This document shows, piece after piece, positions 30,070 to 55,904 of a stretch of 64,000 nucleotides of DNA. The stretch's first letter is position 1. Each line of letters starts with the position of its first letter. A program made the position numbers and the translations under genes. The stretch lies in NCBI GenBank assembly GCA_010093605.1, contig MU004193.1, positions 1,123,520 through 1,187,519 of the forward strand, read 5' to 3'. Origin of the DNA: Lophium mytilinum (taxonomy: Eukaryota). Below the pieces are notes generated by a model. The model was not told the origin of the DNA. It made no database searches and saw nothing but the letters and a program-made list of their open reading frames with translations.

Positions 30070-32082
30070 TTACGTTTTTTGCCGTACCGCCATCTTGGTG
30101 GTTCCAAAATCCATAACCTTGGATGACTGTCCTGGTTGGGACTTATGGCGAGAACGACCTCGTTTTTGCCTCTTGCGTCCGTCTGGAGCAGGTGCAATGG
30201 GGGCAGGCCTATCAGGCTGCACCGCGGGGGGCTGCTGCTCGACAGAGTCTTCTTCTATTGAGTCCGGCCCATATCTGACGTTAGCGAGATCTTTGGTGGC
30301 CAGATCGGTCCTCCACACGTCAAGCGCCATCTGCGCCCAAGCGGGGATACGCTCTCCTTGTGACGCTTCACCAACACTCCGCTCCAGCTCATACATCTCC
30401 CACGGAGAGATTCTGAGCTTATGAAGAATCCACATGTTGATGCGTTCACGAGTGCTTGTGAAATCGCGTAGATAGTCGCTCAGGGTAGACTGACTGCTAT
30501 GACCCTCATCCAGGAGGAGCAAGTCTCGCCCATCTCCCCAGACATTCCCATCATCATAGAAAGCTGGCTCTCCTTCGTGGATGGTTGTAAGGTCTCCAAT
30601 GCCTCGCAGACTGTCGGGCTGCGCCAAACGCCAGATATCTGGCGTTTGAAGATCAGGCGCAGTATATTCTAGAGGAATGCGGTCGTCCCCGGCCATGCCT
30701 TTCGGGACGTCTTCCGCCGTAAGAACGGTGCTTCGTCGCTCAGTACTTCGATGCTGAAGCTGCGGTAAGGCCGACGATTCTTGTTTACTATGAGACAGCG
30801 AACTCTCATACTCGGGTTCTTGGATCCCAGGCTTGAACCGAGGCATTTCGCCGACTTTGACGTTATCGCCAAGATAGGCGCCGTTGAGCATGGCGGCGTT
30901 TCTTGGTTCGCCCACAACCTCACCCACATGCGACTCTGATTCGAAGGATATGTCGGACATGTGCGTTGCCACCGTCGTATTACCAGTCTGCAACTTGAAG
31001 AAGTGGTTGAATTTGCGTTGCAACTCTTCGTATTGCTCCTTCAATTCCCATTCAGCTGCACCCAATTCGTTTTCAATCTGTTCGTAATCATCCTCAGCCG
31101 GACCAACAAGGTCACGGGATGATTGGGCTTTCTCGAATAGCTCTTCTAGTTTGGTGTCTGTGGAGGTAGTCCCACTAATCCATGATATGCGTAAAGCATC
31201 CATAAAGATTCTATCCTTATCAGACACGTTCTGCCGATGTATTCGCAATTCAGTTCGTTTCTCCTGAACTTGGACCCGAAGCCTGGTTATATGCTCTTGC
31301 TTTTGCACAAATTTTGATAGATCGTCCATGAACCGATCATATACTCTCTGGGCTGAAGGATTTACACGCGGTAATTCGGCATTGTCACTAGAGATGACCA
31401 TGTAGGTCATATCTAGAGGCTTGGGTGGACCTGGTGGGGGCGGTGGGGGGGGAGGAGGAGGAGGAGGCGGAGCTTCAGTCATGGTGACAGATTTGACAGA
31501 TCCTTCTGTCTTGGTTGGTGTGTTAGGCGGTGGAAAGTCTTCTGGAGGTGGAGGTGGAGGTGGGGCTGGATGAGGAAGTACAAGCGTATCCTGGGATGGA
31601 TCCATGTCTATATCAATGGGTGGAATGCCGTCGCCGCTCAACGGTTGCTCCCTCTCGTCATTCTGGAATTCATCAGGGGCGGCTGGCGGCTGGATCGCTG
31701 CTGGTGGAGGGTGTATGAGATGGAGGAGGGGGAGGGGTGGAGGAAATATTGGTGGTGGTAAAGCGTCATGAGGTGGAGACGTTAAGGTTGATTCTTCCTT
31801 CACTGGCTGTTGTTTCGGCGTTGCAGGACGTGAGTCTTCGCTGAAGTATTCTTCAGCAAAATGAACCTTGGCCCGTGCTGGCTTTGGCTTTGGCCCCGTC
31901 GCAAAATCACGACCCCGCGGTATAGTTTCGTCTTCCCCAATCGTGTTTGAGTCTGAAGTAATTTCTGAAGGTGGGAATGAAGCTTGGAGGGGCGCCTCAG
32001 AAGAGCTCTTTCGGGAACAGTCCTCGGACGACGGCGTGCTAGGCGCGCACGATTCGACAGACACGGAAGGGCTAGCCTCCAT
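30070..32082 (-). CDS. Coiled-coil partner protein CC1 (polyproline N-terminus), divergent from DUF6590 copy 1
   Basis: 670-aa intronless ORF with FMDALR...RDLVGPAEDDYE...AEWELKE and C-terminal STRERINMWILHKLRISPWE, motifs shared with CC2-CC4. Confidence 0.85.
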   Translation of the reverse strand: MEASPSVSVESCAPSTPSSEDCSRKSSSEAPLQASFPPSEITSDSNTIGEDETIPRGRDFATGPKPKPARAKVHFAEEYFSEDSRPATPKQQPVKEESTLTSPPHDALPPPIFPPPLPLLHLIHPPPAAIQPPAAPDEFQNDEREQPLSGDGIPPIDIDMDPSQDTLVLPHPAPPPPPPPEDFPPPNTPTKTEGSVKSVTMTEAPPPPPPPPPPPPPGPPKPLDMTYMVISSDNAELPRVNPSAQRVYDRFMDDLSKFVQKQEHITRLRVQVQEKRTELRIHRQNVSDKDRIFMDALRISWISGTTSTDTKLEELFEKAQSSRDLVGPAEDDYEQIENELGAAEWELKEQYEELQRKFNHFFKLQTGNTTVATHMSDISFESESHVGEVVGEPRNAAMLNGAYLGDNVKVGEMPRFKPGIQEPEYESSLSHSKQESSALPQLQHRSTERRSTVLTAEDVPKGMAGDDRIPLEYTAPDLQTPDIWRLAQPDSLRGIGDLTTIHEGEPAFYDDGNVWGDGRDLLLLDEGHSSQSTLSDYLRDFTSTRERINMWILHKLRISPWEMYELERSVGEASQGERIPAWAQMALDVWRTDLATKDLANVRYGPDSIEEDSVEQQPPAVQPDRPAPIAPAPDGRKRQKRGRSRHKSQPGQSSKVMDFGTTKMAVRQKT

Positions 32083-32730
32083 CTAACGAGCACGGGAGTC
32101 AGAAGTGGCCAGAATACCATTGCGATTACTTACGTCTTCCAGAGGCATGGTGGACGTCGACATCTGAGGCTGCTGCAAGTCCATTCACATCCCATGTTCG
32201 AGCCGCACAGCCAGACGTGGAGCGAACGGAACGGGCGCAAAAAAGGGGCAAAGAGCCAGCGGTTCAGCCAGCAAGAGCGCGGAATGAGAGAGATACGGCA
32301 TGAGCCAGAAAGCGACACGCTGTGGGCAGACCGCAACGGCAGACGGCGAGCCTTACATCGTGGTTGTGAGCGGTACGCCCCATTTAACGCGCCAGAGAGC
32401 TTTTGCGCGCTGTCCGGGATATTTTAGCGGCGGGAGCTTGATACAACGGATTGGGGCCAAAACAGGGGGCCAGCATGGCGGGCTCGGCTACGGCGACAAA
32501 TGACCAAGCGTCGATAACTGTAACGAAACCACATGCACGCTGTGCTGTCAGGACGCTTACCCTACTTATTACCGTGAGTGCCCCTCACTCAGACCAGCTG
32601 CTATGAGGCTCTTTGCTCGCCAGCGGTATTTGATTGCCCTCGTTCCAGCCCGAAAGGTTGCCGGCTGCTCCCCTAGGACATCCCCGCTGCTGGATGATCC
32701 ACCCCTCGTTTGGCCAACCATCATGTAAAT

Positions 32731-34354
32731 ATGTCTTCGAGCGTCTACTCGGCGTGGGTTTGGTCTCCAGAGCACCAGCGCCACTACTGTTACCGCTATG
32801 TGAACGGCCAAATCGAGTACCAGTGGTCAGGCCTCGCAACTGCCCAAGCGCAAGCAGCCGCGACAACATCGATACCGCAGACACCCCAGGGGACGAGGTG
32901 AGTGATAGTTTATATTATAGCCCTCGAATCTTTGATTGAAACCTTGTTACGGGCTGGAGCACTAGCTCTGCTAGTTGAATGGTTTTTGGAAGTTGTCGGG
33001 GGAGTTCGTTGCCTTGATCTCTTTGGTAGCCTCGTCCTCTCAGCAATGAAACTCCATACCCTTCAAGTCTAGCCCCAAGCACTCCCAACTTCCTCTGCTG
33101 ATCTCCACTATGCAGTGCTGTACCTCGCACAGTACCGACAATACCCTCGGCAGCCGCATCCTCGCCGGGAGCCACATCCTCAAGGACAAATACTTCCTCG
33201 GGAAAAAGGCCACAACCCAAGAAAGAGACTCCTATAGTGCAGGAAGAGAAAGATGACGACGAAGAAGATGAAAATGAGAGCGACGAAGAGGACGACGACG
33301 ATGATGATGACGAGGGTAGTGGAGCGAGGGAGGGAAGGCCGGCGCTTCAAGTATCATCTCAGGCGTACAGGCCAGTCGCAACCACAACGACCCAGCCCGG
33401 CCGGTCTCATAGTTACCAGTATGGAGCGCCCCAGCCTAACAGCTATCAATACGGAGGTGCCCAGTCTACCGCTGCTACATATGCGTCATCTGCAAACACC
33501 CCCTACGTCGCCCCCGCTTCGGCTCCCACGTCACCTCAGTACACCTTCCAACGTCCTCACACGGGTGCTTCTCAGACGGCTGTGCCACAAAAGCGGCAAA
33601 ACTCTTCCAATGGGGGAGGTCCAAACCATCGGCACATTAAAAGTACCGCGGAGGGTACCGAGTCAAAGGAAGAGTCGCTTGATCCTCGTACGTGGTTCCT
33701 GCACTCAACAGGTACCCTGACTGACCGTGTTAGGCTACAAAAGAGTATCCCTTCGGCACACATCGCAGTTTTTTTGTAGAGGAAGAGTCTTCAAGATGCT
33801 TTGGACCGAACCCGCTGGTGTCACTCCGGGGAAAACCCGCGGTTCTACCCATTTTAGTCTAATTAGGTTCAATGAGACGGCCTACTCTGAGATTCGTCGA
33901 TTTATTGTAATAAGTAACAAGGGAAAATACAGTCAGTGCATGTAAGTTTGAATGTGGTTTCTCACCCATCGTCAATCCCTTGTCAGAAACTATCTCACTT
34001 CCTCTCATTCGACCCAGTACGTATGAGACTAAGGCTAACAGTCATAGACCTATCCAAACATACCGTGGCCAGGGCGCTCGTAAGCAGGGGATTATAGTCA
34101 ATGATCACGCCTTGATCTATACTGGCGCCGAGAACGACGAACAACCGCAACTTCTTCCCGGCGAACGGATCACAAAACAACCTCTGCGCGTAGAGCCAAC
34201 GGGCCAGGAAACTCTCGAACCTGCCTCTCGGGTAAATTTTGGGAAGGTATACACCGTGGAACACAACGTCAAAGTGTTAGACGTTGGCGTTGTTGCTCCA
34301 CAGCACATATACCTCTTGATAAATTACTTCACCGACGCTGTGACTTCGGTGTAG
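32731..34354 (+). CDS. DUF6590-type protein copy 1 (N-terminal W/Y motif, acidic linker, MazF/PemK-like C-terminal domain)
   Basis: MSSSVYSAWVWSPEHQRHYCYRYVNGQIEYQW...LDP/YKRV...FFCRGRVFKMLWTEPAG...SEIRRFIVISNKGKYSQC/IPIQTYRGQG...HALIY...SRVNFGKVYTVEHNVKVLDVGVVAP. The structure of the middle exons is approximate. Confidence 0.85.
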
Positions 34355-36097
34355 ACGACAACATAGCGAGTAAAGGATGAGGAGAGAGGCAGGGGATCGA
34401 ATTTCGAATGCTTGACGCGCCACACACTAAGCAACATACGCTTAACTGGCATGTCTCGCTGAAGACACATTTGCACACCACGATGTGCGCGATCATATAC
34501 GAGCCGTAACCGCTTCGTGTTAGCCACGATACCGGGCGGCGTTCCTACGTCTTTTTGCTTCGCATCGTTTTTCTTATGACGATTCTTCTACGAACGCTGT
34601 CATCTAATATTTCCTTCGGCTTATCAGCCCGGCTTACTTGATTTTACCACGATGATGCGTCTGAATAATGCTCTTCGTAACGCATCTAATCTCAGCACGT
34701 CCCAGCGTTAGATAGCTCTTCATGTTTATTCTAATGCAATATAGTTCTCTTAAAGGTTATTATCTTTGAAAAACAAATGTTGGCTCTAAGTGCACTATGC
34801 TGATACTGGAGCTAGGATGGGAATTAAGGGTCTACCTAAGTGTGATTATAGTTGTGGGTCTTGACGGCCCGAGGCACGTGCCGCTGCCCCGCTACGGCCC
34901 GCCAAGTCGAGACTAGTCGATCGGCCCCACGTTTTACCGGCGTGACGGCCCACGCTAATTTTGACATTTCGCCCGACGCGACACCTCAGGAGTTCATCAC
35001 ATCTTCCATCTCATAATCATCACTGTTGTCCTCCAGTGTTTGAAACGGCTGTCTGCTCTCTTGCATGTTCTATGCATCTTTCTTCTTTACATAGACTGAA
35101 CATGTCTTGACCGACACTGCCGCGTCCAGTCTACAAAGAGACGAGGTGCATATCCCCATACAAACCGGGCGACATGCAACTTCGATGATCGCAAGCCCTA
35201 CCGACCCAGCGGACTCCCCTGCCGCTAGCTTTGCATAAAGTCCTCGCTGTTTTAACAGCAAGTCTTACTAAGGAAAAGAAGGCAACAAATGAGGCTGAGG
35301 CTGAAATTAAGAAGGCATAGGTTCGGGCACCGAGTGGCCGAAGGAACAAATACAGGATCCGGCGTGAGCCTTCTCGTACTCTCGCGGTCAGAGAACACGG
35401 CTAGGCTAACGCGTTGTTTCGGATCCCGGGCGTAGAAGTCCGCCAATGATGGCAGCGAGGGGAAGTATTATGTTCAACAAACATTGGTACTCGCGGTCCT
35501 TGATCGGTACTGTAATCGCTAGTAGATACGCAGAGAGCTATGTGAATGCTAAGCTTATCTTTAATTATCTTAGGAAAGTAGGAAAAGAGCGGCCGTTGCT
35601 GAAAGGAAACCGTCCACCGAAGGGAGCAGCCTGGAAATGGCCTCCGGAGCTCTCTTCGCCAAGACGCTCTGAATGAATCAACCAAGTCGTAAACTGTCAC
35701 GTGACCAGGAAATCCGTCGGACTGGAAAACCTATCAAGCGATCGAATGTCGATCGAACCCGTCCTAGAAAAGCATAGCACAGTAGGAAAAGATGCGCAAA
35801 TCGAGCCAAACAAAAGGGATTGTATCCAAACGAGCGTAAATCATGCGTTTGTAACAAAGTTAAAATCCTTTCGGATTACGAACCTCATGTACAAGACTTC
35901 GAATGAGTCTCGTACAGAGCCGTATAAAATACGAAACATGCTTACGGTGTGAAACACGTGCTCATACAAAGACTTGCCGCTCGCAGGCGTTCGACGAACG
36001 CGGGTATGTTCCGCGAGCGAGGTCAAACAAACTGGGAACGGCGATCTCTCAAGGTAGCAAATTGCGGAAGAACAAGTGGGCCTTATCGAGATCCGAC

Positions 36098-38490
36098 TCA
36101 GCCTAGCCATCTTTGCGAACCGTATTCCGAATTCCTTCTCTTCCCTCCTTCATTTCGTCTTGCGTGCTCTCTCTCTCCTCCTATCACTCTCGTGTCTTGT
36201 TTTTGTCTCCTGTGCGGTCGCTCTGGTTCCTTGCCGGAGTGCTGTTCATCTTTCACATTGTTTCCAAGTGCCAAAGTCGAGGAGGCTTCGCTTGCTTCCG
36301 GGTCATTGCCATCATCCATCGGAGTATCTTCGGGTTCTATCGATCCTCCGGACTGTGCCGGGTAGTTCAATTGCCATTGCTCCGCGGGGCGTGTATTTCC
36401 TCTAGGCCGTGGTTGCTGATTGCTCTGTGAACTTGTCCCCATCGCCGCCTCGAATTCAGATCCTCTCCTTTTAGTTTGGTGAGTCTGAAACGCTTGCTCT
36501 TGTGCACCAGATGATGCCAGAGACTGAGGATACACCGGACGGGATGGATAAGCGGACGATGATGCCGGTGTCGATCCCCCAAGGGCATACGGTGGTTTTA
36601 TGGTGGACCCCAACACTGAGGGTTGCTGATACGGTGAAAGCTGGCCTTCAGCAGGTTGATATGCTCTCTCTGTGGATGATCCAGCATTGAGCTCTTTTGG
36701 AGCGCTACTTATGTTCGACCCAAAAGTGCCGCGCGAGGCTCCTACCACAGATCCCCAGTTCAAGGCTGGTTGGTGTGGCGAAGGCTGACTCTCCGTAGCC
36801 TGATGGTCTGCGAATATTGATGAACGAGTGTTGACATCGTTATCGGTAGCAATCTTTGTGTTACTTTTCTGATTCGTACTGTAATCAGACGAAGTCCTTG
36901 CTGGCCTATCCCGCCGCGGGGCGGTAGAGTCGGATTTACAGGCGTTCATGAACTGGTAAACGAGGGCTCGCTCCGAGTTTTTATGCACCTTCCCAAAATG
37001 CCGTACCTTCACATTGTGCTGGACGGTGTACACTTGGTCAAAGTTTATTCGAGACATCGGATCGAGTTTTTCCCAATGAGGGTCCGGCACAACACGAATA
37101 GCATCACCTAGTGGCAGTCGGTTTCTCTGGGTCATCTCTTCAGGCCTTAGTGGCGGGACAGTATCACCAGTATAGATGATGGCATGTCGACTTCTTTGCT
37201 TATCACCAGTGACACCCCGGCCTTCATATGTCTGGATGGGGAGGCACCAGCAGCAGTTACTGCGCATCTTGACGACGACAAACCAGCGGATTTTGACGAA
37301 GAATTTCTCCCCAAATCTCTTCGACTCAGCAAGGTTTTGTGCCGAGACTTCGTGGGCGGAGATCGTCATAGAAGCGGCTCGCTCTGCTACCGGCTCAGGC
37401 CAAAGAACTCGGAATACTTGGCCTACGAGGAAGTAATGATCCCCCTTTGGCTGGACACAGAAACCTAATTGTGTTAGAAAGTTGACTGAAACAGAATGGC
37501 TTAGTCCGACAATATCTTACGAGGATCTAATCGCTCGACTCGCCCAACGGTACCGGCAATCACCTCCGTGTCTACGTCGTCCACGTCTGGTCCCTCTTCT
37601 CTTTGACTAGGCATGGGTGGCGCATTCTGGATTTCTGTGGTACGGGAAGAAGTATCTATTGTCCTTCCCAAGGTCGACGGAGCTTGGCTCGAGCTCTGCA
37701 TTGGAGGTGCGTGGTACGCATTTTGGGCCGGAGAGGCGTCGTGCGAAATGTGGTTCGCGTTTGCGTAGTATGAAATCTGACTTGGATTCGAGCTCTGGAC
37801 TCGCATAGTTTGCGGTTGGCCATTCGTCAAGGGTGGGCTCATGGCCCCGGTGTTGCTAGAAAGATAAGGGGCATGCTGGGCCCAAGGAGAGTACTGAACA
37901 GAGTTCTGACCCATCTGGTACGGGTTCCAGTGGTTGGCCGCAACTGGACGATATGGCTGACCACCAGAGGCTGCATGGTATTCCGGCCCAATTCGTAAGA
38001 GAGAGTGTTGAGCTATGGTTGAGTTTAACGTGTGTGTTTGGCCAAACCCTCTCTCATTCGGTTGTGGTTGAACAGCATATATGCCACCGCTTGTGGTCCC
38101 ATTATCGATTGGAGCTTGTTCGAGGGTCGGAGTCAGCTGCGAAGTAGTCTGTGAGTTGCTTGACTCCACAACTGAAGGGGATGAATGCAGCTGATTGGCA
38201 GACGAGTTTTCTGCACTGTCTTCAAAATGTCTTTGGGGGTTACTGATACTCTATAGATTAGCCTCCAGTGCTGATTCCGCATCGAAGCATCGTCTTGGCG
38301 GGGCATATTGAACTCACTGATTGTTTGGACCGGTAGTGGCACCTGTTGCAGAAATTTGAGTGGTATTGAGTTCTGTACTCGCTCTAAAAATCCAGCTACT
38401 GCTTCCCGTATCGTAGTACCGATAATCATGGTATCTCTCGTCCCATATCCATTCCGGCGGCGGTGGTGGTTCTCCCTGAGGCGGTGCCAT
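36098..38490 (-). CDS. DUF6590-type protein copy 2 (with a long disordered C-terminal extension)
   Basis: MAPPQGEPPPPPEWIWDERYHDYRYYD...ERLDP/RFCVQPKGDHYFLVGQVFRVLWPEP...KIRWFVVVKMRSNCCWCLPIQTYEGRG...HAIIY...SRINFDQVYTVQHNVKVRHFGKV. Introns at about 38317-38243 and 37520-37465. Confidence 0.85.
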
Positions 38491-39210
38491 AATGGCGCAT
38501 TGGCCGGCCCTGGTCACTTTTGTACGTATGCAGTCGCCATCAGTTTTATGTAAGTTCCTCTGTCAAGGATGGTAATGATGGGGACGGGTCGATGAGGGGA
38601 TTGGTCCAGCAAACAGAGCCTCATGATGTCGACTTGTACGTATGATTCGTCCGTTCCTTTGGCCAGCGAAGTCGACAGCCCCGGCAAACCCTGGTAAAGA
38701 CTGGTTTCCAAGTCTAGCCTGCCTCGCTTACTGATAATGCAAGCAGCGGAGGACGCGGGCGAGAACCACATTGATTGCCCTGTGATCCCGGTGGTACGTT
38801 TGTGGCGCCTCCTTTGCAGAAACAGGGCGGGCAACCCTTCTTTTAAGCATGCAGTGTCCTTCACACCAAAACTCGACTTGGTGTGCCTTCGACTGTTAGC
38901 CGTCGCCTACTTATGGACCTGGTAAAGCAGGAGCCGGTCGGTACTGAAGTCGTCTCGGCCAGCGGATATGACATTTTTACTGAACTTTCGTAAGTTTTCT
39001 TCGGCTCAGTAATTTTTGCTCCAAGTTCTAACTATATGAAGACTGCAATCATCAGTTCACCACTCCCCTTTACTACTCTCATCCGAGACACTCGATGCAA
39101 GAGGTCAGCTGGACCTCGGCTCTAGACCCTCGTTCCAAAATAGAAGGCTTGAGCTATGCGAAGGATCGCCGAACAATGCCTCTGCCGCATTTGACCAAGC
39201 CTCCTCAGCC

Positions 39211-40551
39211 TTGCTGCAAACGCAAGCGCCGTCCCCTCAAGAACATTATCAACAACACTCAAATGGGAATACATTGTACCAGATTTCCACTGGATCGCCG
39301 GAAACATCATCACAACTGCCAAAGAGGAGCACCTCTAGGCAAACCATGCCAAACAGCCTTCCACCGAGCAAAAGGTGGATCAGAGCACAACCACGCGTGG
39401 CTCGTTGGAGGGACAAAGTCTTGACTGCACGTGTTCGGAATAAAGAGCAAAGGAGGATATGTTCGCAGCAAAGGCAGCACTGCCATGGTCTCCAATGGCG
39501 GCTCACGAATAATCTCCAGACAGCACTGGAAGCCCTTGTACAAACGAAGGACCCGGAAAGCCTCAAAAAAGGTTTCCAAGGTCTTCAGCGATTGTGCGCA
39601 GAAGTGGGCGTGTTAATGAATGGATTGGAGGCTGAAAACGTGCAAGTAGATGCACAGGAAGACCATCTTTCTGATCTGGAATACCGTTTCGGAAAAAAAG
39701 AAGATGACCTCTTCCGCCACTTGGACATTGCATTACTCGGCGGCGACACGCAATATGAGAGCACAGATTCATTCTCCGACAGTAGCTCTAGTATATCGAG
39801 CTACGATTCCCCTGAAACCGAGATCCACCCTCTTCTCAAAGAACTTTATTCAAGGATGGGAGACCGAAACATCTATAAGGACCGCCGGATCGATTTCGAG
39901 ATGCGGCTTCAGCACGACGTCGAAGATCGCGAGACCCTTCGTGGAGAAGGGAAAGAAGTCAGCACCGATGAGGAGTTCTACCGCACGCGACTACCGGAGC
40001 AGTTACGAATACAATATGATCTGTCCCAAGCACGCGAAGATGTTCGACGGCTTAGGCAGTTATGCTTCAATGAGGGTATCGAGGTTGAGCACATCGTTGA
40101 GGACGACGACGATGGATCAGCTTTTGATGCTCATTCTGAAGTGTTCTCAGCGCCCGTGGATCTGGAACATTCTACAAAACCCTCGACTACGGACTGGTGC
40201 CCTCCGCAAGCATCTCGATCTTTTAGCAGTATATCACCCGGGGTAATCAATAGCTTCGTAAATACCCGCGAGCGTGTCAGGAAGTGGTTAGCCGATGCCC
40301 CTATGGTAGAACCAGCGCTCGAAGCACCCGCAATTCAAGCAATATCCAAGGACCAGAGTTGGGTCAAGCTAGTGCGAGCACCATGGCCATCAAAGGAGGC
40401 TCTACAAGGCGGGATCTCTGGCTACGATGCACCTGACTGGATCCAGCCCGCGCAAGCCCAGCTCTCCAAATCGGCACCTTACATTCGAACCCCGTCGACT
40501 GAAGCCTACGACAACCCTCCACGAGGAGGACGCACATGCAGTTCCTCGTGA
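39211..40551 (+). CDS. Coiled-coil partner protein CC2, divergent from DUF6590 copy 2
   Basis: 446-aa ORF with LSDLEYRFGKKEDDLF (compare EWRFIEAEDDFY in CC4) and NTRERVRKWL (compare STRERINMWI in CC1). The true start is uncertain: first in-frame ATG at 39346, possible upstream exon near 39095. Confidence 0.75.
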   Translation: MLQTQAPSPQEHYQQHSNGNTLYQISTGSPETSSQLPKRSTSRQTMPNSLPPSKRWIRAQPRVARWRDKVLTARVRNKEQRRICSQQRQHCHGLQWRLTNNLQTALEALVQTKDPESLKKGFQGLQRLCAEVGVLMNGLEAENVQVDAQEDHLSDLEYRFGKKEDDLFRHLDIALLGGDTQYESTDSFSDSSSSISSYDSPETEIHPLLKELYSRMGDRNIYKDRRIDFEMRLQHDVEDRETLRGEGKEVSTDEEFYRTRLPEQLRIQYDLSQAREDVRRLRQLCFNEGIEVEHIVEDDDDGSAFDAHSEVFSAPVDLEHSTKPSTTDWCPPQASRSFSSISPGVINSFVNTRERVRKWLADAPMVEPALEAPAIQAISKDQSWVKLVRAPWPSKEALQGGISGYDAPDWIQPAQAQLSKSAPYIRTPSTEAYDNPPRGGRTCSSS

Positions 40552-45066: not shown

Positions 45067-45900
45067 AGTAGGCTTTGTTGTGGCGTGAGGAGTAGTGGGC
45101 ACTTCGCTCTCCTGTGGACATTTCCGGATAATATACGGCGGCCGAAAGCGCGGTCCGACCGGTGTCACTTGAAAGTTTCAGTGCTGAGACAGGAGACGGA
45201 GAAGAACAGGCAGGTTAAAACGAACGTTGATATGGTCCACGGTTATGCTATGTCCCGAGCTCTGCAATGTGTAAGACTGAAGATCGATGTGTTGAGTTTA
45301 GCGGAGGGTGTTGCAATGGACAGCCCTTACATGGTCGCAATTTTGACGCGCCTGAGCTTGGCACGCGCAAGGTGATAACCGCGCTATTTATTACCTTGCA
45401 AAATGAAACAAATGAAAGCATTCCACTTGGTAGCGGCGGAGGGATTAAGGCAACCGTGCGTAAAGGGCTCGACCAAGCTAATTGCGGTGCACGAGCATGC
45501 ACCCAGCCGGGCGAGCAACGGGGGGCCCTCAATCGGTGAAGGCGATCGAACGAGGCGCTGGTGCGTCCCCCATAATCCGAAGGGTGGCACGCCTAAGTGT
45601 GAATCCCTGCGCCATACTAAAGCGGCGTTCGACCCGTGCGGTACGCACCAACCGCCTGGGATTGGGCCTGGGGCATTATGCATGGCGCATAACTCATAAC
45701 CCCTCCTTGTTACTTGCATGCAGCATTCAGACAGGGTGAAAGTGGGGAAGATGGACAATCGCTGCAGCGTAGAATAGCTCGTGATAGAAATGCGGCTCTG
45801 CGAGCGCTACGCTGGCAGCCACCGAGGTGTGGACAGGAACGTGGCCCGTATAAGAATGCCTCCCCCAACCGTGTGAAACCTGTCTAGATAGCAATCAAGC

Positions 45901-47159
45901 ATGGCTTCCAATAGCAACCCATGGGTCTGGAGCGAGGAATATAGGCGATACTACTGTATCTCTTATGATGAAGAGTGTAATTGTACCGACCTGAAGCAAC
46001 GTGTGGGCTCACTGACAGTCCAAGCAAACCCCGTGTACATTTGGCAAGATGTCACACCTAGTGTAGCACCCACCCCTACCTCACTCGGTATAGCAAGCAA
46101 TACTGCAACCGCTACGCAGCGTGCGTTTTCTGACATGTAGCGACAATTTGAATGTACTAATCAGCTCAGGCCCCCCTCCGCAGACTTGGGCCTATGGAAG
46201 CCATCCTACAAGCCACGCCGCAGTCAACACAACGACAAATGCTGTATACAGCACACCCACGGAGGGTGCAAATGATCCACGGCGACGCGATTCAGTGATG
46301 ACTAGTAAGCTACTCACTTGTAATGATGTTATAATTGAACCGTCTACGTTTAGATCATTGAAGTGAACTGACATGGATCACTCAGAAAAAGCACCGGACT
46401 TGGGCAACCATATCAAGGGGACGAATGGAGACTTCGAGGAGCTAGATTCAAGTATGACCCTGGATGACTGAATATCGCATAGCACTAACAACTGCAGGCT
46501 ATTCTGTAAGGAAGGATGGCAAGAGATTTTTCAAAAGAGGAACAGTAAGACCTTTCCCATAGTTGATTGGACCTCGGCTTATTAGTTTTTACAGCTCTTC
46601 TCGGTCCTGTTTAGTGAAGGCATGGGAGAAACGCAAAAAATGCAGGACAACGAGAATGTCACTACGGTCAAATACGGTGGGAAGGTGTTTACACAGATAC
46701 GCCGATTTGGTAAGGCGTGTTCCTGGACAGAGCTCCCCGTATAAATTTAACAGTTCACCAGTTGTCGTGGCAGAACGTGAGGGGTTCTGCTATGCGTGGT
46801 ACGTTTAGAGATTCTCATGTACCCATTCAACCGTTTTTTAACAAATCGAATACAGTCCAGTCTTCACGTACACCGGTCGTGGGACCCTGAAACCGGGCTG
46901 TCGGCCGTGGGAGCATGCCGTCATATACTACAGCACGTTGCAATCTCCCATAACTCTCGATGGCGAGAACCAGATGAAGAATTCTCCCATCGGGGTGAAA
47001 CCAGAGCCTACCGAAACGAGGCCATTGAGTACCGCCTCCCGTGTACAATTCGGGAAAGTGTACCCCATTGATCACAATGTCAAGGTGAAACTTCTCGGGA
47101 AAGTCATAACTGAGCACATGGGAAGGTTGATCGCCTACTATAAAAATGAGCTCGATTGA
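45901..47159 (+). CDS. DUF6590-type protein copy 3 (compact, many introns)
   Basis: MASNSNPWVWSEEYRRYYCISYD...ELDS/YSVRKDGKRFFKRGT/LFSVLFSEG...TQIRRF/VVVAEREGFCYAC/PVFTYTGRGTLKPGCRPWEHAVIYY...SRVQFGKVYPIDHNVKVKLLGKV...LIAYYKNELD*. Confidence 0.85.
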
Positions 47160-47924
47160 TTCGTCGTCGACGCGCGCATCCTGGACAACCGATCATACGT
47201 GGGACGCCAGCTCAACACTGGAGAGATTAGCTTCAACACCTCTCCCTATTCCTTTTGTTTACAATTACGTGAGCTTCATACCTTGAAGCTCGGTGGCACC
47301 ACCAAGAAGGACCTCTATTTCTCGTTCGATAAGAAGCGCACTTGATATTCAACCCAAATTGTCGATGATGATACTAGACAAGACCCCCATTTCGTTCTTT
47401 GAAGTTATATGATGTAGTTTTCCCTTGTTTATGACAGACTGGAACCTCTCGTAGTCTACTTCACTCTGAGTAAGCGTGTTCGGACTTGTATGCTGTGCGT
47501 TTTATTTCGACATCCACTGTCTTTACTCGTGTGAACATCGTAAAGAGATAATGAAGACATCTGACTTCTTCGAACTATGGTCGTCTAACATCATCTAGAT
47601 AGAGACGAGCGTCACAGGTACTCTACTAGATAGACGTAAGATACGAGTCAGAGCGAAGGACCGGCTGAGTAATCTGATGTAAGGAGCCTTCGTGGCAGAG
47701 ACTTATAGACTAGCAGAATATATTCAAAGGAGTCGTGGGCTCCGCAAATGATGATGAGCTGCTGGCATACTGGTGCAAAACTTTTCAGATTTTCTTTCAG
47801 TGTTTAGTACTACTACCAAAATAGAATAGCGTCTTGGCAGACCGAAATAATACCGAAAATATAGGAGAAATGACCGTATCCCGACTAGCATGCTCCCTCC
47901 GAGGCCTTCTTCTGGCGCCATTTT

Positions 47925-49679
47925 CTACGTCAGCCACTCTACCTCCCTTTCTAATGGCTCGATGACGTTGGCGTAGATTCCATTTCGTGTCTCAGCATCG
48001 TCCAGCCTCACACTCTGACCCCCCTGCACCCAAGTTAGGTCCAAACAAGCTTCAACTGAGGAACGGTATGGCGACGCATCCATTTTCTTGACAATACGAT
48101 CCGCGACTATCAAATTAAGGTTGTCCTCGGTAGCGGCCGTCAGATTCGAGCGCTCCTGCGTGCTCCGCCAACACTCGATTGGCTTTTCGTTATGTATCTC
48201 GATAAGAAGAATGCCCAGAGTGAGAATATTGGAGTTCGGATGGAACACTCCGGAATTTGGTTGTCCGACTTGCCTTGCGGGGCTCTCAAATCTAGTCGAA
48301 AGGTATGGTCTCGTATAATCTGGCTCGTTTTGGAGGTTGACGAAAAACGAGAGATTGCTCTTGTTCCATCCGCGGCTAAGCCATGGACTATCATGAAAAA
48401 GAAGAAGCGAGTAGGAACATATCAACGCAAGTCTGCGCTTTTCTAATGGTCCCATCTTTGCATTTTCAACCAGTAGTTCCCCTAGGGATATTGGTTTTTG
48501 TGGCTCGAGTAAGTTGTGGATCCGTCGAGGTTTAGGGGCCAATCTCCAAAGAGACTGCTGTCCGTTGATGTCTTCCATGAGAATGCGGAGCCTGAAGTCT
48601 CTCAAGCCCATTTTCAATGCGTCACAAACTCTTTGGAGCCTAGTTTCGTCGTCGGCTCGCGGTATACTGTTCCCAAATTAGTCAGGTTAGAACTCCATCA
48701 GCCTCAAAATGTACGCTTACCTGGCCGAGCAGACTGACACAGTCCCTTCTTGCCAACAGTGCGCGCTGTTCTGTGAAGAAGTTGTGGTGATGAAGAAGTC
48801 AAGGTCTACGACGTCGGCGTTCAAGTTTGCCGAAGCTTCCTGGACGTAAATGCAGAATCTGGCTTCATGTCCTCCGTTGCAGGTACACTTCCACGAGCGA
48901 GCAAACGCATCATACAACTTTCTTGTTAGTAGCCGGGCTGGCGCAGAAGGGCTTGTGAGTGCGAGGAAAAACCCGCTTTTTCCCTGAGTGTGTTCACTAT
49001 GTCGGCGCCCCATAAGAGGCAGAACATGTGTCTGAGATCCTACTTTCTCAATGAGATCTCTCAATCTCTGATTCCTGAGTTTCAATCTCTGCAAGCAATC
49101 ATTGCGATGATTCTTTTTTCTGAAAAAGTGGAATCTTTCCATGAAATTGCTTTTCGTTCTCTTTGTTTCTCTTTCCAAGGCGAAGCCTTTCAACTTTTCA
49201 TACATTTCGGATTCTTCCTACAGCCACTTAGTACGTAAGACTCAGAAGAGTTGTTCCTGACTAACCAAGTCTTTGTTGGCAACGTATGTCATTTGGTTCT
49301 TGAGGAGCTGAGCCAGGAGTTGCACGATTCTTTTTGACGTTGTGCTAAATTTGTTGAACGCAGCCTCCGAACCAAAGTAACGGCGAAGACGCTTCTCCAC
49401 TTCTGAGTTTTGAATCCAGTCATCCAGCTTCAACGCAGAGGCAGGACGATATTGTCCCGGGGAATCCGAAATAGCTCTAGATATCTCTGCAACGTGCTCT
49501 CCTAGCTCACTTATTTCCCAGTAAAATTCGTCGTAGAAGTCGCTAAGGCTCGCATTACGGCGAGATTTTAAAGAAACATTAAGAACTGTGTCCACTCCAT
49601 CCGAGTACGCTTTCCCAGCCTCGATAAAAAGTGGCAGCAGCGCAAGGACAAGACCGGCACACTCGACTCCCGTAACCAT
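47925..49679 (-). CDS. HeLo-like N-terminal domain plus C-terminal pseudokinase-like (DUF7580-type) protein, 3 exons
   Basis: MVTGVECAGLVLALLPLFIEA is a HeLo-like hydrophobic N-terminal helix. The C-terminus reads RRLALICSYSLLLFHDSPWLSRGWNKSNLSFF...PYLS...NILTLGILLIEI...YRSSVEACL. It joins ORFs 49242-49679, 48717-49205 and 47925-48617. Confidence 0.75.
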
Positions 49680-50280
49680 GGCGATATCTCAGAGGTAGCA
49701 ATTGGAGTGCAATGATTCGAAAGGCTTGTCGAACTTGATTTTGTGTCTCACTAAAGATTCAGCTGCTTGTGTCTTGGGTCGTTGAAATAAAAAAGCTCGC
49801 GGTTCTTGAGGGGTCAAGAGTTCTAGTGGGGTCACCGCCAATCATCAAGACCTTCCGGTGAAGGATGTTCCGGTGAGTGCTGCGACTGACCGAGGATAGG
49901 AATCTCTAAGAGCGTCCGGTGAAAAGCAATAAGCTTGACGATTCCAGAGAGCGCCCTGGGAAAAATCCATCATTACTAGATCTATATCGAAACATAAATA
50001 GTACGTCACCCGCTGCTCTGCTGTACCCCATCACCTTGCTATAAGTCGCAAGATTGAGTGCAGTTTACCCCGCACTAGAAAAAGCAAATGAGTGCACGTC
50101 TCAGCATTTTCTATCACCGACCCAGCATTGCAGATTCTAATGCTTGTCGAGGCTTAGTTTACATTTCTTGCAACGCTTTGGTAAGATCTTTTCAATTTAG
50201 CCTCTAAGTACTACTATCGAACTTTTAGAGAGACATTCCATGCCCTGTTGAGGTTCAAGCTCCAAGAATCTCTTCTCAGC

Positions 50281-53204
50281 ATGGACACAGTAAAGTTCGA
50301 AAACGATGCAAGAATCAGCACTTCTACGGAGCAACTACACTACGACAATTTCATATCTATACAAACTGCTGCGAATCATTGCGCTAGTATCTTCACTAGC
50401 TCAAGAGCAATATCTATTCGACAGGAGTGCCCAAAAGGGATACTAGTCGACTTCGAAACCCAATGCAGTCGATTCAAGATTTGGGCATGCGGTCTCGATA
50501 TCTCTTTCAGTCAAGTTAAGGCGGAGCAGCTGAGTGAAGAGCGGCTTAAGACTGAGAGTAAGTGCGAAACCGATGAAGTCGTTGCCCATCTGCTTCGAAG
50601 GCTCGCCGGAAAGCTCCTTGCATTTTTGGCATCACCTTTGGATACTCAAGCCCGACCTGAAGAGCAGTCAAGCCAGGCCGGAAATAACGCAGAATCAACG
50701 AGTCCATGTTCTTCGGTGTCCTCTCTGGTGCTTGAATCGGATGCAGAATCTTCCGACTCAGATGATTCACCCCCAGACTCCGCAACACTCCGGACAAACC
50801 TTGCTCGCCGGCATCCTCTACTGGTAGATGCTGATAATATCATCACGCGTCTCTATCGCTTCAATGCTATTACCAGGATATACACAGCACACGGTGAGCA
50901 CCAAAGGTCTCCTCAGCATGTTGGGGCTGATCAACAGTACCCTGACCCACCGGGTTTCCAGTTGCTTGTCGAAAACGACGTTCTGAGGAGTAGTCCCCGC
51001 CTGCAACATTTGCCAGCTTTGCAGGAGCGTATTGTTCGCGCAGCTCTTCACCGGGACAGAAGAATTCGTGGTTGGAAACCCCATGAACAGGAGCCTCTTG
51101 AAGCTGATGCCTCGGAAACTGAGATACCTCCAGCAGGACCAGAAGATTGTCTTGGGATTCCACATATGCCGCAACCTATCAGGCCAAGTTCATCGGAAGC
51201 TCAATGTCCTATTTGCTCCAAAACCTTTAATCACGGGCTTGAAGAAAATCGGAATACGGGAAAATGGTGGAGGTAATGTGTTAATCGCCGCTTGAGTTTC
51301 AGTCCTTCTACTAATCTAACTGGGTAATTATAGGTCCCATGTTATGGAAGATCTAGAACCATACGTCTGCCTATTTGAGGAGTGCCCTATGGAGTATCAA
51401 GCTTTTCGGACTATCGCTGATTGGATAAATCACATGGCGTGGCAGCATACCACGTTCTACTCCTGCCAGTTTGGCGGCCACGAGAATGTATTCTTCCTCA
51501 GCCGGAAAGCATTCGAGTGTCATCTAACGCAAGATCATCTTGATAACATCCCTAAAGGAAAAATTGACCATATCATCTCAAAAGGCCTCCGGCCGGCCCC
51601 GGATCTGATAACAGTGCTCGTGGCCAAAGCAGATCTGACGACACATGCCCTTCTCGATCACGTGTCCTTGTGTCCCTTTTGCTATATCGGATTGAGTATA
51701 TTCGGCTTTCCCTTGAATGTAGAAGCAAATGGTACTGCAATCTCACTAATTCCATCTGCGCTACATTTGAAAGTACAAGACCACGTTGCTGCTCACCTAG
51801 AATCCATTGCGCTGCTTTCGTTAAAAAAAACGAGGACCGTACCCTCCTACCCTTGATCATTCGGTGTCTAAAGCAGCCAATTCGCGAACTCTGGAAGATT
51901 CATGGCCCGCCGCATCAAATGCGCCCATGAATGCATCCACAGATGCGCAGGCCACATCCCAGCCAACAACGCTCTTCCGTCAAAGATCCGCTGAACCTGC
52001 GCATCCACCGAATGCTAGTCATTTGGAATCTGGTGTCATTACATCATCAGATGTAGAACCCGCTGCACATGCACAAAGGCAAATGGCTTCGCAGCCAGCG
52101 TCATCCTCTTATCATCCGGCCTCGAACTCTTCTGCACAAAATACCGGCCTGTCCATGTCGCTCACCAATGCTTGGACATCCGAGACTTCTAACGCGAATG
52201 TGTGGACTTGGAGCGAGCCTTACCAGAACTATTACCGCGTCTCTTGGGACTCGAAAGGTAGTATCACTATGTGAAGTTAAGGATGCGTTGTTCACTAATT
52301 ACGATGCAGGCGCTCCAATATACCACTGGGCCGAAATAAAACCTACCATTTCAAGTCCGGTGAACCCAGCGAGTTTGGTATCTTTGCCTGCAAAGGGTAG
52401 GTCGACTTCCCTTTATGTTGAGTACTCGTTCTTTCAGATATTCTATCAATGCCGTTACGTTTCCAGAAACTGACAAGCCATAGATGAAAGCAAGGCTGCA
52501 AATGTTAGCAGTGGAACGCTCAGTAACGCAGAATTACTTGACTCGAGTGGGTTTATTACCGTAGACTCAAACATGTTGTTGCTAATTGCTACAAGGCTAC
52601 AGACTCCAAGCTTCTAGGTTCTTTAGGAAAGGAAGGGTAATTTACCCTGTAAGCAGCCTTAGTTTGGTAATACTATTGACGCAACTCTGTAGATGTTCTC
52701 AGTTCTTTCCACTGTCGGTGATACCGCACCTAAAACAGACAAGGAGAGCGGGTATGGTAGTGTAGTTCGGCACCAAACGACTACGGCGGCGCAAATTCTC
52801 CGATTAGTCTCCGTCGATAACAAAAACGAGGTGTGTTATGCCTGGTAAGTTTCACACGATACTCATCACGGTGAGACGCTGATAATGATAGTCGTATCTC
52901 TACATACGGAAAACGAGGTACCCTCGGAGAAGGGTGCCAACCTAGCCAGCATGCCATTATCTACTACGTTGGGCGTCAGGATCCTATCCTTCTGGAAGGA
53001 GAAATGGGAATAAAGAAAAACCCAATTGGAGTCACACCTATGGAAGGCGACTCCTCGCTATCAAAGATGCACGTTGCTTCGCGCCTTAACTTCGGAGATG
53101 TGTATCAGATAGAGCACAACGTGAAAGTAAAAGATCTCGGGAAGGTCATCGACGAAGACATGTCGTACCTGATTGCCTACTACGAGCAGGGAAGAAAGGG
53201 ATAA
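50281..53204 (+). CDS. C2H2 zinc-finger protein fused to W/Y motif and DUF6590 copy 4; frame broken at an A8 run (51823-51830)
   Basis: RFKIWACGL...IITRLYRF...CPICSKTF...WR/SHVMEDLEPYVCLFEEC...WINHM...CPFC...HVAAHLESIALLSL. Removing one A continues the frame to WTWSEPYQNYYRVSWD...LLDS/YRLQASRFFRKGR/MFSVL...CYAC/RISTYGKRGT...HAIIYY...SRLNFGDVYQIEHNVKVKDLGKV. Could instead be a pseudogene or two genes. Confidence 0.7.
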
Positions 53205-53987: not shown

Positions 53988-55904
53988 ATGTCGACAGATC
54001 GAGGTCCAATTGCAGACCTACCAGAGGAACTTTGCGGCGATACTTCTGATGTCCGTCCAAACCGGCCTTACCTTCCAAACTTCTCTAGCGTGTGTCGTCA
54101 TAAGGACTGTCATCTTTCTCAACACAAGGACCGTCATTTCCATCGCAAGTACCGTCAACATCTAGAGAACGTGCAGAGGAGGCATGAACAGCTCGCGCAG
54201 TCAAGAGAACGAATAGTCATCGAGCGAGTGGAAACCCGATCTATATTGCAATCGATTCGTCCGCACCGAGAGAGAGCTGGAAACCTCGAGGCTTCATTTG
54301 TGACGAGGCTGAGACAATTCTGTGCGCGGCAAGCCAGTGTTCTTCCTCCGGATATTGACGCACTGTACCAAGAGGTTCAAGAAGCACGAGACACGATTGG
54401 TAAACTCGAAGATGACTTTATCGAAGCCCAGAAGTCGTATAATGCCTCTGAATGGCGGTTCATCGAAGCAGAGGATGATTTCTATCAGTATGATATTCTA
54501 GAAGATCTCCCAGAGACTAGCGACGAGGGCAGTATTAGCGACAGCGCACGTGGAGAGCCTACAACTTCACTCGTCATAACCCAACCAGTCGCTAAAGCTA
54601 TGATGGAAAGACTTTCCCGCGATCTCGTAAGCAATACGATAGAAAAGCGCCAGCTCAACGATCAGTTCAATGACTTCCGGGAGGAAGAAGTTGTACCAAT
54701 GGATGAACAAGAACTACGGTTACTTGCCGACTTTTCAACTCCGCGGAGGATAGAGGAGGAAAAGGACTTATTTCAACAAGCAGCAAACGTGGTTATCGAG
54801 AAACTCGTTGCTGTCGATGTCAGAGAAAGAAATCTAAGGCAAGAAATGCTCAGTATCGCCCACTCCTCCATGGCCCTTAGTCGCCGAGCTTCGGATCCTC
54901 CGAGATCGACTATGATGCCTTCACCAACTTCAAACATCGAGGCAATCTCACGCGAGATGAATGAAAGCAACTTGGCTGTGTATGGCCACGACCGCATAAG
55001 TAATAGAAAGAGAGTGGGCCAATGGATACTTGATACTATGGAGACGTCATCTCTTGAGAAAGCTCGATTCAAGCACTTTCTCCGCAGTGCAAACAATGAG
55101 GAGTTTGATGAGTCCATCTTTGAGCAGATCTTGATTCAGCGTTGGATGGATGGGAGCTCTAGTAGTTCAGCAAGTCGCACTGGCCAAGACGGCCCGATGT
55201 GGCACAGAAGCGTTGCGAGAAGTGAGTCTATGGAGGCAAAGAGAGAAGAATATGAGCCTTCGGAGACTCTGATGTCCAGACATGCAAAGAGCACATGGAC
55301 ACCGCCCATCTCCGTCAAATTTGCCTCACCACCCCATCACCAACTAGAGCTCAGAAACACAACACCGGAAAATATGGAAAGCTCTGATCATACGAGCAAT
55401 CTCTCTACAAATGACCGACACATAAGTCAAGACAAGACTACCATCGATCGCCCTAACCCCACGCTAGACTTTCATCAACATGCCTACGAATTACGTATCC
55501 AGCCTGAGAGATCTAGTGATCGGCCTCGATCAGATCTAGGGGATATCGGTGACGCTGGGAACGTCACTTTCGATCTGATTCTACCCAACTCATCCGCGAA
55601 CGTTGAGACCTCGTCTACCACCCAATACCGGTACAATGAGCCTTTGCGAGCTCCTCCGCCAATGATCACCGAGAACATCAGAGGCGCCCACCAGCTATTC
55701 ACATATACCATCAACAGACCATCTCCAAGTCCACCGCTTACAATGGCGTCTAGCGCTTCAGTCGTAGTTAATATCTCACGATCTGCTTCACCAATGAGCG
55801 ATGGTATTGAGCCACATGAATTACGGCGATGCCCCAGAGGAGATCTACCGCTTGCAAGGTCTGCATCCCACCGAAGATCTCGGAGTGAAAGCAACGCTTG
55901 CTAG
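53988..55904 (+). CDS. Coiled-coil partner protein CC4, in tandem downstream of DUF6590 copy 4
   Basis: LEASFVTRLR...VQEARDTIGKLEDD...SEWRFIEAEDDFY...FNDFREEEV...RRASDP...RKRVGQWILDTMETSSLEKARFK. Clearly paralogous to CC3. Confidence 0.85.
   Translation: MSTDRGPIADLPEELCGDTSDVRPNRPYLPNFSSVCRHKDCHLSQHKDRHFHRKYRQHLENVQRRHEQLAQSRERIVIERVETRSILQSIRPHRERAGNLEASFVTRLRQFCARQASVLPPDIDALYQEVQEARDTIGKLEDDFIEAQKSYNASEWRFIEAEDDFYQYDILEDLPETSDEGSISDSARGEPTTSLVITQPVAKAMMERLSRDLVSNTIEKRQLNDQFNDFREEEVVPMDEQELRLLADFSTPRRIEEEKDLFQQAANVVIEKLVAVDVRERNLRQEMLSIAHSSMALSRRASDPPRSTMMPSPTSNIEAISREMNESNLAVYGHDRISNRKRVGQWILDTMETSSLEKARFKHFLRSANNEEFDESIFEQILIQRWMDGSSSSSASRTGQDGPMWHRSVARSESMEAKREEYEPSETLMSRHAKSTWTPPISVKFASPPHHQLELRNTTPENMESSDHTSNLSTNDRHISQDKTTIDRPNPTLDFHQHAYELRIQPERSSDRPRSDLGDIGDAGNVTFDLILPNSSANVETSSTTQYRYNEPLRAPPPMITENIRGAHQLFTYTINRPSPSPPLTMASSASVVVNISRSASPMSDGIEPHELRRCPRGDLPLARSASHRRSRSESNAC

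Follow-up and report, generated by a model that had tools for sequence, protein, structure and literature searches.

To our knowledge, toxin-antitoxin modules of the MazF type are regarded as prokaryotic. Among other two-gene systems, peel-1/zeel-1, wtf, Spok, the het-Q gasdermin/protease pair and het-S/nwd2 are toxin-antidote or fungal cell-death pairs, and the divergent histone pairs H2A-H2B and H3-H4 lie head-to-head, with joint expression of proteins that act together. Here we describe a locus of Lophium mytilinum that shares features with each of these. The DNA analyzed was a stretch of 64,000 nucleotides (assembly GCA_010093605.1, contig MU004193.1, positions 1,123,520-1,187,519 of the forward strand), which we call the window; it is fungal DNA and its genes bear introns. 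Positions 30070 to 55904 hold four pairs (pairs 1-4), each made of a DUF6590 gene (D1-D4) and a gene for a coiled-coil partner (CC1-CC4). Judging from sequence comparison, they represent an old two-gene module of filamentous ascomycetes, present here four times.

The initial annotation of the window had pointed to four DUF6590-type genes, and a Pfam search confirmed all four, with PF20233 (DUF6590) matches above the gathering score of 27 bits. A tblastn search of the whole window with D2 found exactly these four copies and no fifth. The residues conserved in the family are retained in every copy, and none looks like a pseudogene. Pairs 1-3 are head-to-head (CC1<>D1, D2<>CC2, CC3<>D3) and pair 4 is a tandem (D4>CC4), the orientations given originally being correct. 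A Trp/Tyr-rich motif, W.W[SD]...Y[YC], opens all four D proteins. The features are as follows (base pairs, bp; subfamilies A and B are defined below).

30070-32184, minus strand: CC1, subfamily A, exon 1 at 32134-32184, intron at 32083-32133, exon 2 at 30070-32082, 687 residues.
32185-32730, no strand: spacer of pair 1, CC1 start to D1 start, 546 bp.
32731-34354, plus strand: D1, exons 32731-32895, 33114-33687, 33734-33941 and 34048-34354, 417 residues; opening motif at 32731-32800; PF20233 match at 33914-34354, last exon (E 5.3e-28, 98.4 bits).
36098-38490, minus strand: D2, predicted sense model of ~755 residues, domain wholly within one exon, 36827-37462; opening motif at 38420-38490; PF20233 match at 36098-37516 (E 1.6e-43, 148.8 bits).
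38491-38912, no strand: spacer of pair 2, D2 start to CC2 start, 422 bp.
38913-40551, plus strand: CC2, subfamily B, coding exons 38913-38989 and 39042-40551, leader exons upstream, 528 residues.
43000-45066, minus strand: CC3, subfamily A, one open reading frame (ORF), 688 residues; a transcript contig covers the gene.
45067-45900, no strand: spacer of pair 3, CC3 start to D3 start, 834 bp, both ATGs confirmed.
45901-47159, plus strand: D3, 8 exons, 291 residues; the best open model has a score of 140 on the DUF6590 hidden Markov model (HMM); opening motif at 45901-45976; PF20233 match at 46842-47159 (E 7.5e-27, 94.6 bits).
52083-53204, plus strand: D4, start uncertain, in-frame ATGs at 52083 and 52155, last exon 52896-53204; opening motif at 52188-52256; PF20233 match at 52875-53204 (E 4.6e-26, 92.1 bits).
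53988-55904, plus strand: CC4, subfamily A, 638 residues, in tandem 783 bp past the D4 stop.

We modeled the D2 domain with AlphaFold2 using an alignment of 37 sequences (mean predicted local distance difference test, pLDDT, 85.1; predicted template modeling score, pTM, 0.81) and compared the model with 48,161 representative solved chains. Eleven chains reached a Z score of at least 8, and all of them were MazF, CcdB or Kid toxins (Z 9.7-8.1, root mean square deviation 2.3-3.2, 89-106 residues aligned of 94-118). The type III toxins CptN, ToxN and AbiQ came next (Z 7.4-5.0), and unrelated chains did not exceed 4.8. The top matches listed by Foldseek were also MazF-family toxins (MazF, MoxT, YdcE), at weak scores (best E 5.6e-3), with CptN at rank 48. 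On this model, the D domain is predicted to be a distant MazF/PemK/CcdB-fold domain, i.e. an SH3-like barrel with a C-terminal helix. At the sequence level, PemK_toxin (PF02452) was the second most frequent Pfam match, found in 4 of 37 D proteins at E<=10 (best E 4e-4). In one protein (L060, 9911-10531), residues 61-179 matched PF02452 positions 5-105 of 109 at 21.0 bits, as compared to a cut-off of 23.1. The term 'MazF-like' used at first is therefore backed by the fold comparison and by this near-threshold match. By eye, the D motifs GRVFxVLWxEP, RRFVVV and CxCLPIxTY follow the order of MazF GDLIWVDFDP, HRPAVVL and CLCVPCTT. At least 90% of the 37 D proteins retain R58, Y78, H92, S136 and N149 (numbered as in the D2 domain), a conservation that would suit an active site; in alignment A4, T77 is kept in at least 90% of the 15 sequences, and in alignment A5 it is invariant. 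The D profile met only acidic low-complexity matches among the sequences of the PDB, and an NCBIfam search with D returned nothing relevant.

D proteins bear long low-complexity regions, and the named matches to DUF6590 and CC came from ascomycetes only; both families look lineage-restricted. One DUF6590 protein of Elasticomyces elasticus (P0011, LTR15_008050) carries a HET domain (5.4e-13) fused to a C-terminal DUF6590, and the gene for a second DUF6590 protein (P0168, LTR15_008043) is on the same 1.03-Mb contig, at a distance of seven locus tags. Several other DUF6590 proteins, of 1000-1600 residues, contain no other Pfam domain.

The partner proteins are more diverged. CC3 and CC4 are clearly related in BLASTP (6e-48, 33% over 353 residues), and CC1 and CC3 are related (7e-10); CC2 against CC3 was not significant (0.38), and a Pfam search gave no match for any of CC1-CC4. 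When a profile of the CC1/CC3/CC4 core was run in a full HMMER scan, 824 cluster representatives had E<=1e-3; 408 of these passed E<=1e-10 and 29 passed E<=1e-30. A word-index search with CC3 returned no match, and the family was seen only by the full HMMER scan. We built an HMM (CC-A) from 149 of the 150 listed relatives, leaving out the window's own CC4 record, so that it contained no window protein. It scored CC1, CC2, CC3 and CC4 at 223.5, 68.3 (E 4e-23), 238.3 and 224.9 bits. Since CC2 reached 68.3 bits when the best of 200 shuffles of CC2 reached 4.8, we place CC1-CC4, on sequence grounds, in a single large family of Ascomycota, for which Pfam has no model, and the one coiled-coil family postulated at the outset is thereby upheld. 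In the ESM Atlas the family consists of ascomycete 'hypothetical proteins' without Pfam families. In the AlphaFold2 model of the CC3 core (pLDDT 79), residues 3-70/77-142 and 174-214/221-257 form two long helical hairpins, and the conserved C-terminal Trp-rich motif of the family lies in a small helical end. Foldseek with this core retrieved generic long-helix proteins only (best E 0.058), with no specific structural match.

We then asked whether the pairing holds elsewhere. The comparison set consisted of 69 metagenomic loci, picked solely for encoding a DUF6590 relative and taken with at most 10 kilobases (kb) of flank per side, whose six-frame ORFs were scanned with the CC and D HMMs. Together with the window, they contained 113 D genes (74 distinct at 95% identity) and 23 CC genes of the first subfamily, A, which form 18 distinct clusters, 14 of them non-window. 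Each of the 14 distinct CC-A genes outside the window has a head-to-head D neighbor within 2.3 kb, the edges of the HMM matches being 1.4-2.1 kb apart. When each CC was given a random position and strand inside its own locus, the mean number of such pairs was 3.9 and the maximum 10; none of 5000 runs reached 14. The pairing of D and CC is beyond chance.

Upstream of D genes that at first seemed solo, we found a recurrent family of ORFs (cluster 0, 15 ORFs of 161-562 residues, mostly at least 400). One of its members matched the CC HMM at 2.5e-11, and its alignment matched that of CC in hhalign with a probability of 95% (E 3e-8), as compared to 0.1-0.4% for two control clusters. CC2 scored 98.1 bits (E 3e-28) on the HMM of cluster 0 (CC-B), higher than on CC-A. 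By these sequence scores the family divides into subfamily A, with CC1, CC3 and CC4, and subfamily B, with CC2 and its cluster 0 relatives, and CC2 bridges the two. We also considered whether the remaining solo D genes have a third partner family upstream and rejected the idea, as clusters 1 and 2 showed no relation to CC (hhalign 0.1-0.4%). Since CC-B was recognized in sequence upstream of D genes, the 15 discovery cases are adjacent to D by design; the same head-to-head geometry was present in five loci beyond the discovery set (L001, L010, L023, L030 and L052).

With both subfamilies taken into account, a CC occurs within 3 kb of 25 of the 39 distinct non-window D genes that are well flanked (at least 3.5 kb upstream). 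The arrangement is divergent in 20 of them; the other five belong to dense arrays, and the CC nearest to each is oriented toward a different D. Seen from the other side, 35 of the 38 CC gene copies that have at least 2.5 kb on their 5' side (window included, copies not deduplicated) have a divergent D within 3 kb; the exceptions are one gene of L003/L005, seen twice, and CC4 of the window. In this D-ascertained sample, CC is almost always accompanied by D, and D is not always accompanied by CC. None of the 29 D proteins examined was a D-CC fusion. The densest locus, L003 (1-20516, with a near-copy in L005), holds seven DUF6590 and three CC-B genes in ~20 kb; some of its D copies sit on very long tree branches, as in a dense and partly decaying array.

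Two features of the D proteins were tried as correlates of pairing and abandoned. The N-terminal W.W[SD]..Y[YC] motif was present in 7/17 paired and 6/37 unpaired D; in the form seen in the window, it also occurs upstream of 9 of 50 other D genes examined, paired and solo alike. An acidic tail, defined as at least 13 Asp/Glu in 30 residues following the DUF6590 domain, was initially favored as a replacement in cis for CC in solo D (1/16 paired versus 20/51 unpaired), an idea dropped after CC-B was found: such tails occur in 7/12 CC-B-paired, 2/16 CC-A-paired and 5/18 solo D.

The two families also diversify together. Over 18 distinct pairs, D and CC distances are correlated (Mantel r 0.31, p 0.0024), and in 14 of these 18 the nearest neighbor pair is the same for D as for CC. 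We mapped the partner type onto a quick maximum-likelihood tree of 68 of the 74 distinct D domains, a more careful search being unfinished; six D genes whose extracted domain was shorter than 120 residues, including D3 and D4 of the window, are outside this tree. Label A required 5 changes, against a shuffled mean of 11.2, and all partner labels together 24 against 36.4, values matched by 0/500 and 0/200 shuffles, respectively. The 'no partner' label was scattered (14 changes, 225/500 shuffles as low), which suggests repeated loss of CC or missed partners. D and CC lineages thus diversify together, and each D has its cognate CC.

The order of the pairs is conserved as well. Two loci, L014 and L017, contain three pairs that, read reversed, have the same order and orientation as window pairs 1-3. 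Identity to these counterparts is 66% for D and 46% for CC in pair 1, 44% and 35% in pair 2, and 45-49% and 23-25% for pairs 3/4. Alternating clusters with a B-type pair in the middle were also found in L007, L051 and L055. Because the order of pairs 1-3 recurs in two other organisms, the three-pair cluster is old and pairs 1-3 are old paralogues. The closest relative of pair 4 is pair 3 (D 55%, CC 31% identity), and by its sequence only pair 4 looks like a later local copy, with one gene turned round. The initial annotation was right that the pairing has survived deep divergence, being real, old and recurrent in other loci; its notion of a local amplification applies to pair 4 and not to pairs 1-3. 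CC has diverged more than D in every pair comparison.

Transcript evidence for pairs 1-3 came from contigs of one public run (X1), aligned over 30000-49999, the RNA nature of which was only guessed beforehand. We aligned 18 contigs, each at least 99% identical to the window. They appear to be cDNA-like because they omit at least 15 short stretches with canonical intron ends; 15 of 18 splice joints were listed, and what follows on joints rests on those 15. Sense splice forms were found for D1, CC1, CC2 and D3. The CC1 contig lacks the minus-strand intron 32083-32133 (CT..AC on the plus strand), which gives an in-frame ATG at 32184. Introns 32896-33113, 33688-33733 and 33942-34047 (GT..AG) are absent from the D1 contig, leaving a frame open from the ATG at 32731 to the stop at 34354; an acidic run N-terminal to the DUF6590 domain (33102-33779) gave a weak Prothymosin match in Pfam. 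CC2 has introns 38693-38745 and 38990-39041, an ATG at 38913 and a long ORF at 39040-40551. For D3, introns 45977-46024, 46121-46169, 46305-46385, 46452-46497 and 46545-46594 come from contigs, and 46710-46761 and 46799-46855 are predicted, as are the D2 sense introns 38249-38317 and 37465-37520. In D4, the N-terminal motif exon lies at ~52188-52256 and the first half of the domain at ~52693-52842 (tblastn with the D3 model).

These contigs modify part of the first gene models. The starts named earlier do carry an ATG at 32082, 32731, 38490, 45066, 45901 and 53988, and a TTG at 39211. The spliced contigs move CC1 to 32184 and CC2 to 38913. As a consequence, the start-to-start spacing, first put at about 0.65-0.85 kb, is 546 bp for pair 1, 422 bp for pair 2 and 834 bp for pair 3. 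The pair 1 spacer, crossed by one contig that bears introns of both strands, is presumed to be a shared bidirectional control region. The pair 2 spacer is transcribed within the CC2 leader (joints 38692>38746 and 38989>39042). A promoter motif common to the three spacers was not found, one shared 8-mer against 0.2 expected (shuffle maximum 2) being not significant.

At the D2 locus, the contigs lack two plus-strand GT..AG introns (37433-37494 and 38151-38256) that are antisense to D2, and both overlap the predicted D2 sense introns. From the lengths of the aligned pieces, a contig with CC2 exons appears to reach back to 38257, i.e. over the D2 start codon and first exon. Within 35436-39042, D2 seems to be crossed by a spliced RNA of the antisense strand, which may be a long leader of CC2. 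Another overlap concerns D3 (46675-47341), where a minus-strand intron (CT..AC, 47218-47281) lies just downstream of the stop and a 121-residue minus-strand ORF (46827-47192) is antisense to the last exon; a minus-strand transcript overlaps or abuts the D3 3' end.

The surroundings of the cluster (1-30000 and 56000-64000) are ordinary, with genes for an RRM protein (12564-14504), Bot1p (16031-17617), a TPR protein (19615-21573), a DEAD-box helicase (56536-58308) and a catalase (61250-63094). The DNA around the four pairs is ordinary and gene-dense, unlike a repeat-rich island. Pairs 3 and 4 are separated by a DUF7580 gene on the minus strand (47925-49688; Pfam 1.4e-27 on 47925-48677); the ORFs 48717-49217 and 49242-49688 upstream of it have no Pfam match, and an X1 contig omits a plus-strand-type intron (~48686-48759) antisense to it. 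Two plus-strand ORFs directly upstream of D4 (50185-51856) show C2H2-like Cys/His patterns with no Pfam match above noise, and a link between the C2H2-like ORF and a C2H2+DUF6590 protein, P0170, was discarded as the similarity was not significant.

How might such a pair work? The D domain would most likely be a sequence-specific endoribonuclease. The D and CC genes normally lie head-to-head over a shared region of 0.4-0.85 kb, and CC would bind its cognate D and restrain or direct the nuclease; once freed, D would cut RNA and bring about cell arrest or death. We tentatively favor this toxin-antitoxin-like effector/regulator pair, in which CC restrains or directs the D nuclease, and put it somewhat below an even chance. 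Binding, RNase activity, toxicity and neutralization are here what we infer. Complex predictions for the D2 domain and the CC2 core (0.41, 0.51 and 0.51, against 0.64 for a control of CC2 with an unrelated protein) point neither way. Several observations weigh against this proposal. None of the 37 D proteins tested exceeds the PF02452 cut-off, and D2 of the window has no match to it. By hhalign, D matches E. coli MazF and ChpB only weakly (probability 5-7%): CxCLPIxTY of D is the sole stretch anchored, on CLCVPCTTQ of MazF, and T77 of D falls opposite T53 of MazF, not T52. The catalytic residues of E. coli MazF are Arg29 and Thr52 (R29 and T52), and the sequence comparison offers only a lead to their equivalents in D. 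CC is unlike a classical antitoxin, being helical and 450-690 residues long with no DNA-binding or other Pfam domain. The synteny of three pairs at 44-66% D identity fits a host function more readily than it does a selfish addiction element. For D2, no sense splice form is among the 15 listed joints. Moreover, all loci were ascertained through D, so that the rule that every CC has a D rests on a D-centered sample. Finally, no CC was detected within 3 kb of 14 of the 39 well-flanked D genes, a result that sits uneasily with D being a toxin in need of a linked antidote. The term 'obligate' used by the initial annotation fails here for D.

The main rival is an obligate complex without toxicity, in which CC would be a scaffold or targeting subunit and D an RNA-binding or processing subunit, with linkage keeping their expression balanced as in divergent histone pairs. 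The deep synteny of the three-pair cluster, the ordinary character of the other window genes (DEAD-box helicase, catalase, RRM and TPR), the many D genes without CC, the large, helical and scaffold-like CC and the long low-complexity regions of D all agree with it. Nevertheless, all solved structures that resemble the D fold at Z>=8 are toxins, and the families look lineage-restricted, with named matches from ascomycetes only. Diverged paralogous pairs kept side by side, partner-specific co-diversification and a fast partner together are what insulated effector/inhibitor pairs typically show and what a housekeeping complex rarely does; we judge the non-toxic complex somewhat unlikely. A more specific version of the toxin-antitoxin-like proposal would be a vertically conserved, chromosomal system of filamentous ascomycetes derived from MazF, made of clusters of insulated cognate pairs of a MazF-fold RNase and a coiled-coil antidote or sensor, with the antidote leader running antisense through the toxin gene as it seems to do at D2/CC2. 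This version, which we regard as unlikely as a whole, would if true be the first eukaryotic family of MazF-type toxin/partner modules and might serve as a switch for abortive infection or stress arrest, mycoviruses being one conceivable target.

A conflict system, either a selfish toxin-antidote element of the spore killer kind or an allorecognition or cell-death locus where D kills and CC is the antidote or recognition factor, seems quite improbable. Quick divergence of CC, D arrays such as the 7 genes in 20 kb of L003, the DUF7580 gene between pairs 3 and 4 and the HET+DUF6590 fusion of one relative (P0011), a small gain, speak for it. On the other hand, known drivers and het loci are polymorphic and subject to rapid turnover, and here both the pair types and the cluster order are conserved between organisms. 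Pfam detects no HET, HeLo, NLR (NACHT/NB-ARC), gasdermin or protease domain in D1-D4 or CC1-CC4, so the likeness to het-S/nwd2 or gasdermin-protease pairs that had been drawn at first finds no domain support, the fusion being its sole link. Linkage might also reflect mere sharing of a bidirectional promoter, or overlapping transcription units, by products that do not work together; the spacers are short (422-834 bp) and transcribed, and spliced antisense RNA covers D2. Co-diversification over many pair types needs more than this, the partner family has been kept through deep divergence, through the inversion of pair 4 and in 35 of 38 CC copies, and the three spacers have no motif in common; we hold this explanation to be very improbable.

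We found no paper naming 'DUF6590' or 'PF20233', and no description of a fungal MazF-like family or of the D/CC pairing, including in passages of PMC2446400 and PMC11156358; subscription-only papers and supplements were outside the search. Compared to the known MazF systems, the new elements are the eukaryotic setting, divergent transcription, the clusters of alternating pairs and the new partner family. DUF6590, a large ascomycete family of unknown function, gains a predicted assignment to the fold of the MazF toxin superfamily and a defined, co-evolving partner family that is unnamed in databases. The linkage rule, i.e. head-to-head pairs, often three alternating pairs per cluster, conserved between organisms, makes it testable whether eukaryotic chromosomes keep effector/inhibitor pairs like the toxin-antitoxin systems of bacteria. 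If D is an RNase restrained by CC, the pairs would be a new class of fungal growth-arrest or immunity switches and would supply orthogonal pairs in ready-made natural sets. With a non-toxic D, the pair would still define a new conserved two-protein complex of fungal RNA biology.

Comparison with the known systems places D closest to the MazF/PemK/Kid/CcdB toxins (PF02452, PF01845). It resembles them in fold (Z 9.7-8.1 over ~100 of 105-118 residues), in a near-threshold and near full-length PemK_toxin match, in the order of its motifs and in having an adjoining gene for a co-evolving partner. It differs in being eukaryotic, intron-bearing and 290-755 residues long with long low-complexity arms, in its additional conserved His, Ser and Asn, and in that none passes the Pfam cut-off. 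The partner is not of the MazE, Kis or CcdA type, and the genes are divergent instead of forming an operon. Type II systems consist of adjacent, jointly controlled genes, and the window pairs, head-to-head or in tandem within 0.4-0.85 kb, conform to this; CC does not have the character of the small, labile, DNA-binding antitoxin with a toxin-binding tail. Like MazE, Kis and CcdA, CC adjoins a MazF-fold gene and evolves faster than its partner; unlike them, it has 450-690 residues, two long helical hairpins, a Trp-rich C-terminal motif and long disordered tails, and no AbrB, RHH or other Pfam domain. The type III toxins ToxN, CptN and AbiQ have a related fold (Z 7.4-5.0), and the antisense or overlapping RNA at D2/CC2 loosely recalls control at the RNA level. 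However, this match is weaker than that to MazF, no repeat-RNA antitoxin array lies beside D, and the partner is a protein.

With peel-1/zeel-1, wtf, Spok, het-Q and het-S/nwd2, the D/CC pairs share tight two-gene linkage, diverged copies and a possible combination of effector and regulator. They have no domains in common with them, the D/CC types are conserved between organisms and not strain-specific, and D/CC is known from sequence alone. As in the divergent histone pairs, a head-to-head arrangement over a short shared region is conserved, although the D/CC proteins are unrelated to histones, multi-copy, fast-evolving and lineage-restricted. Altogether, a predicted MazF-like fold paired with a fast-evolving coiled-coil partner makes D/CC a good candidate for a toxin-antitoxin-like system in a eukaryote.

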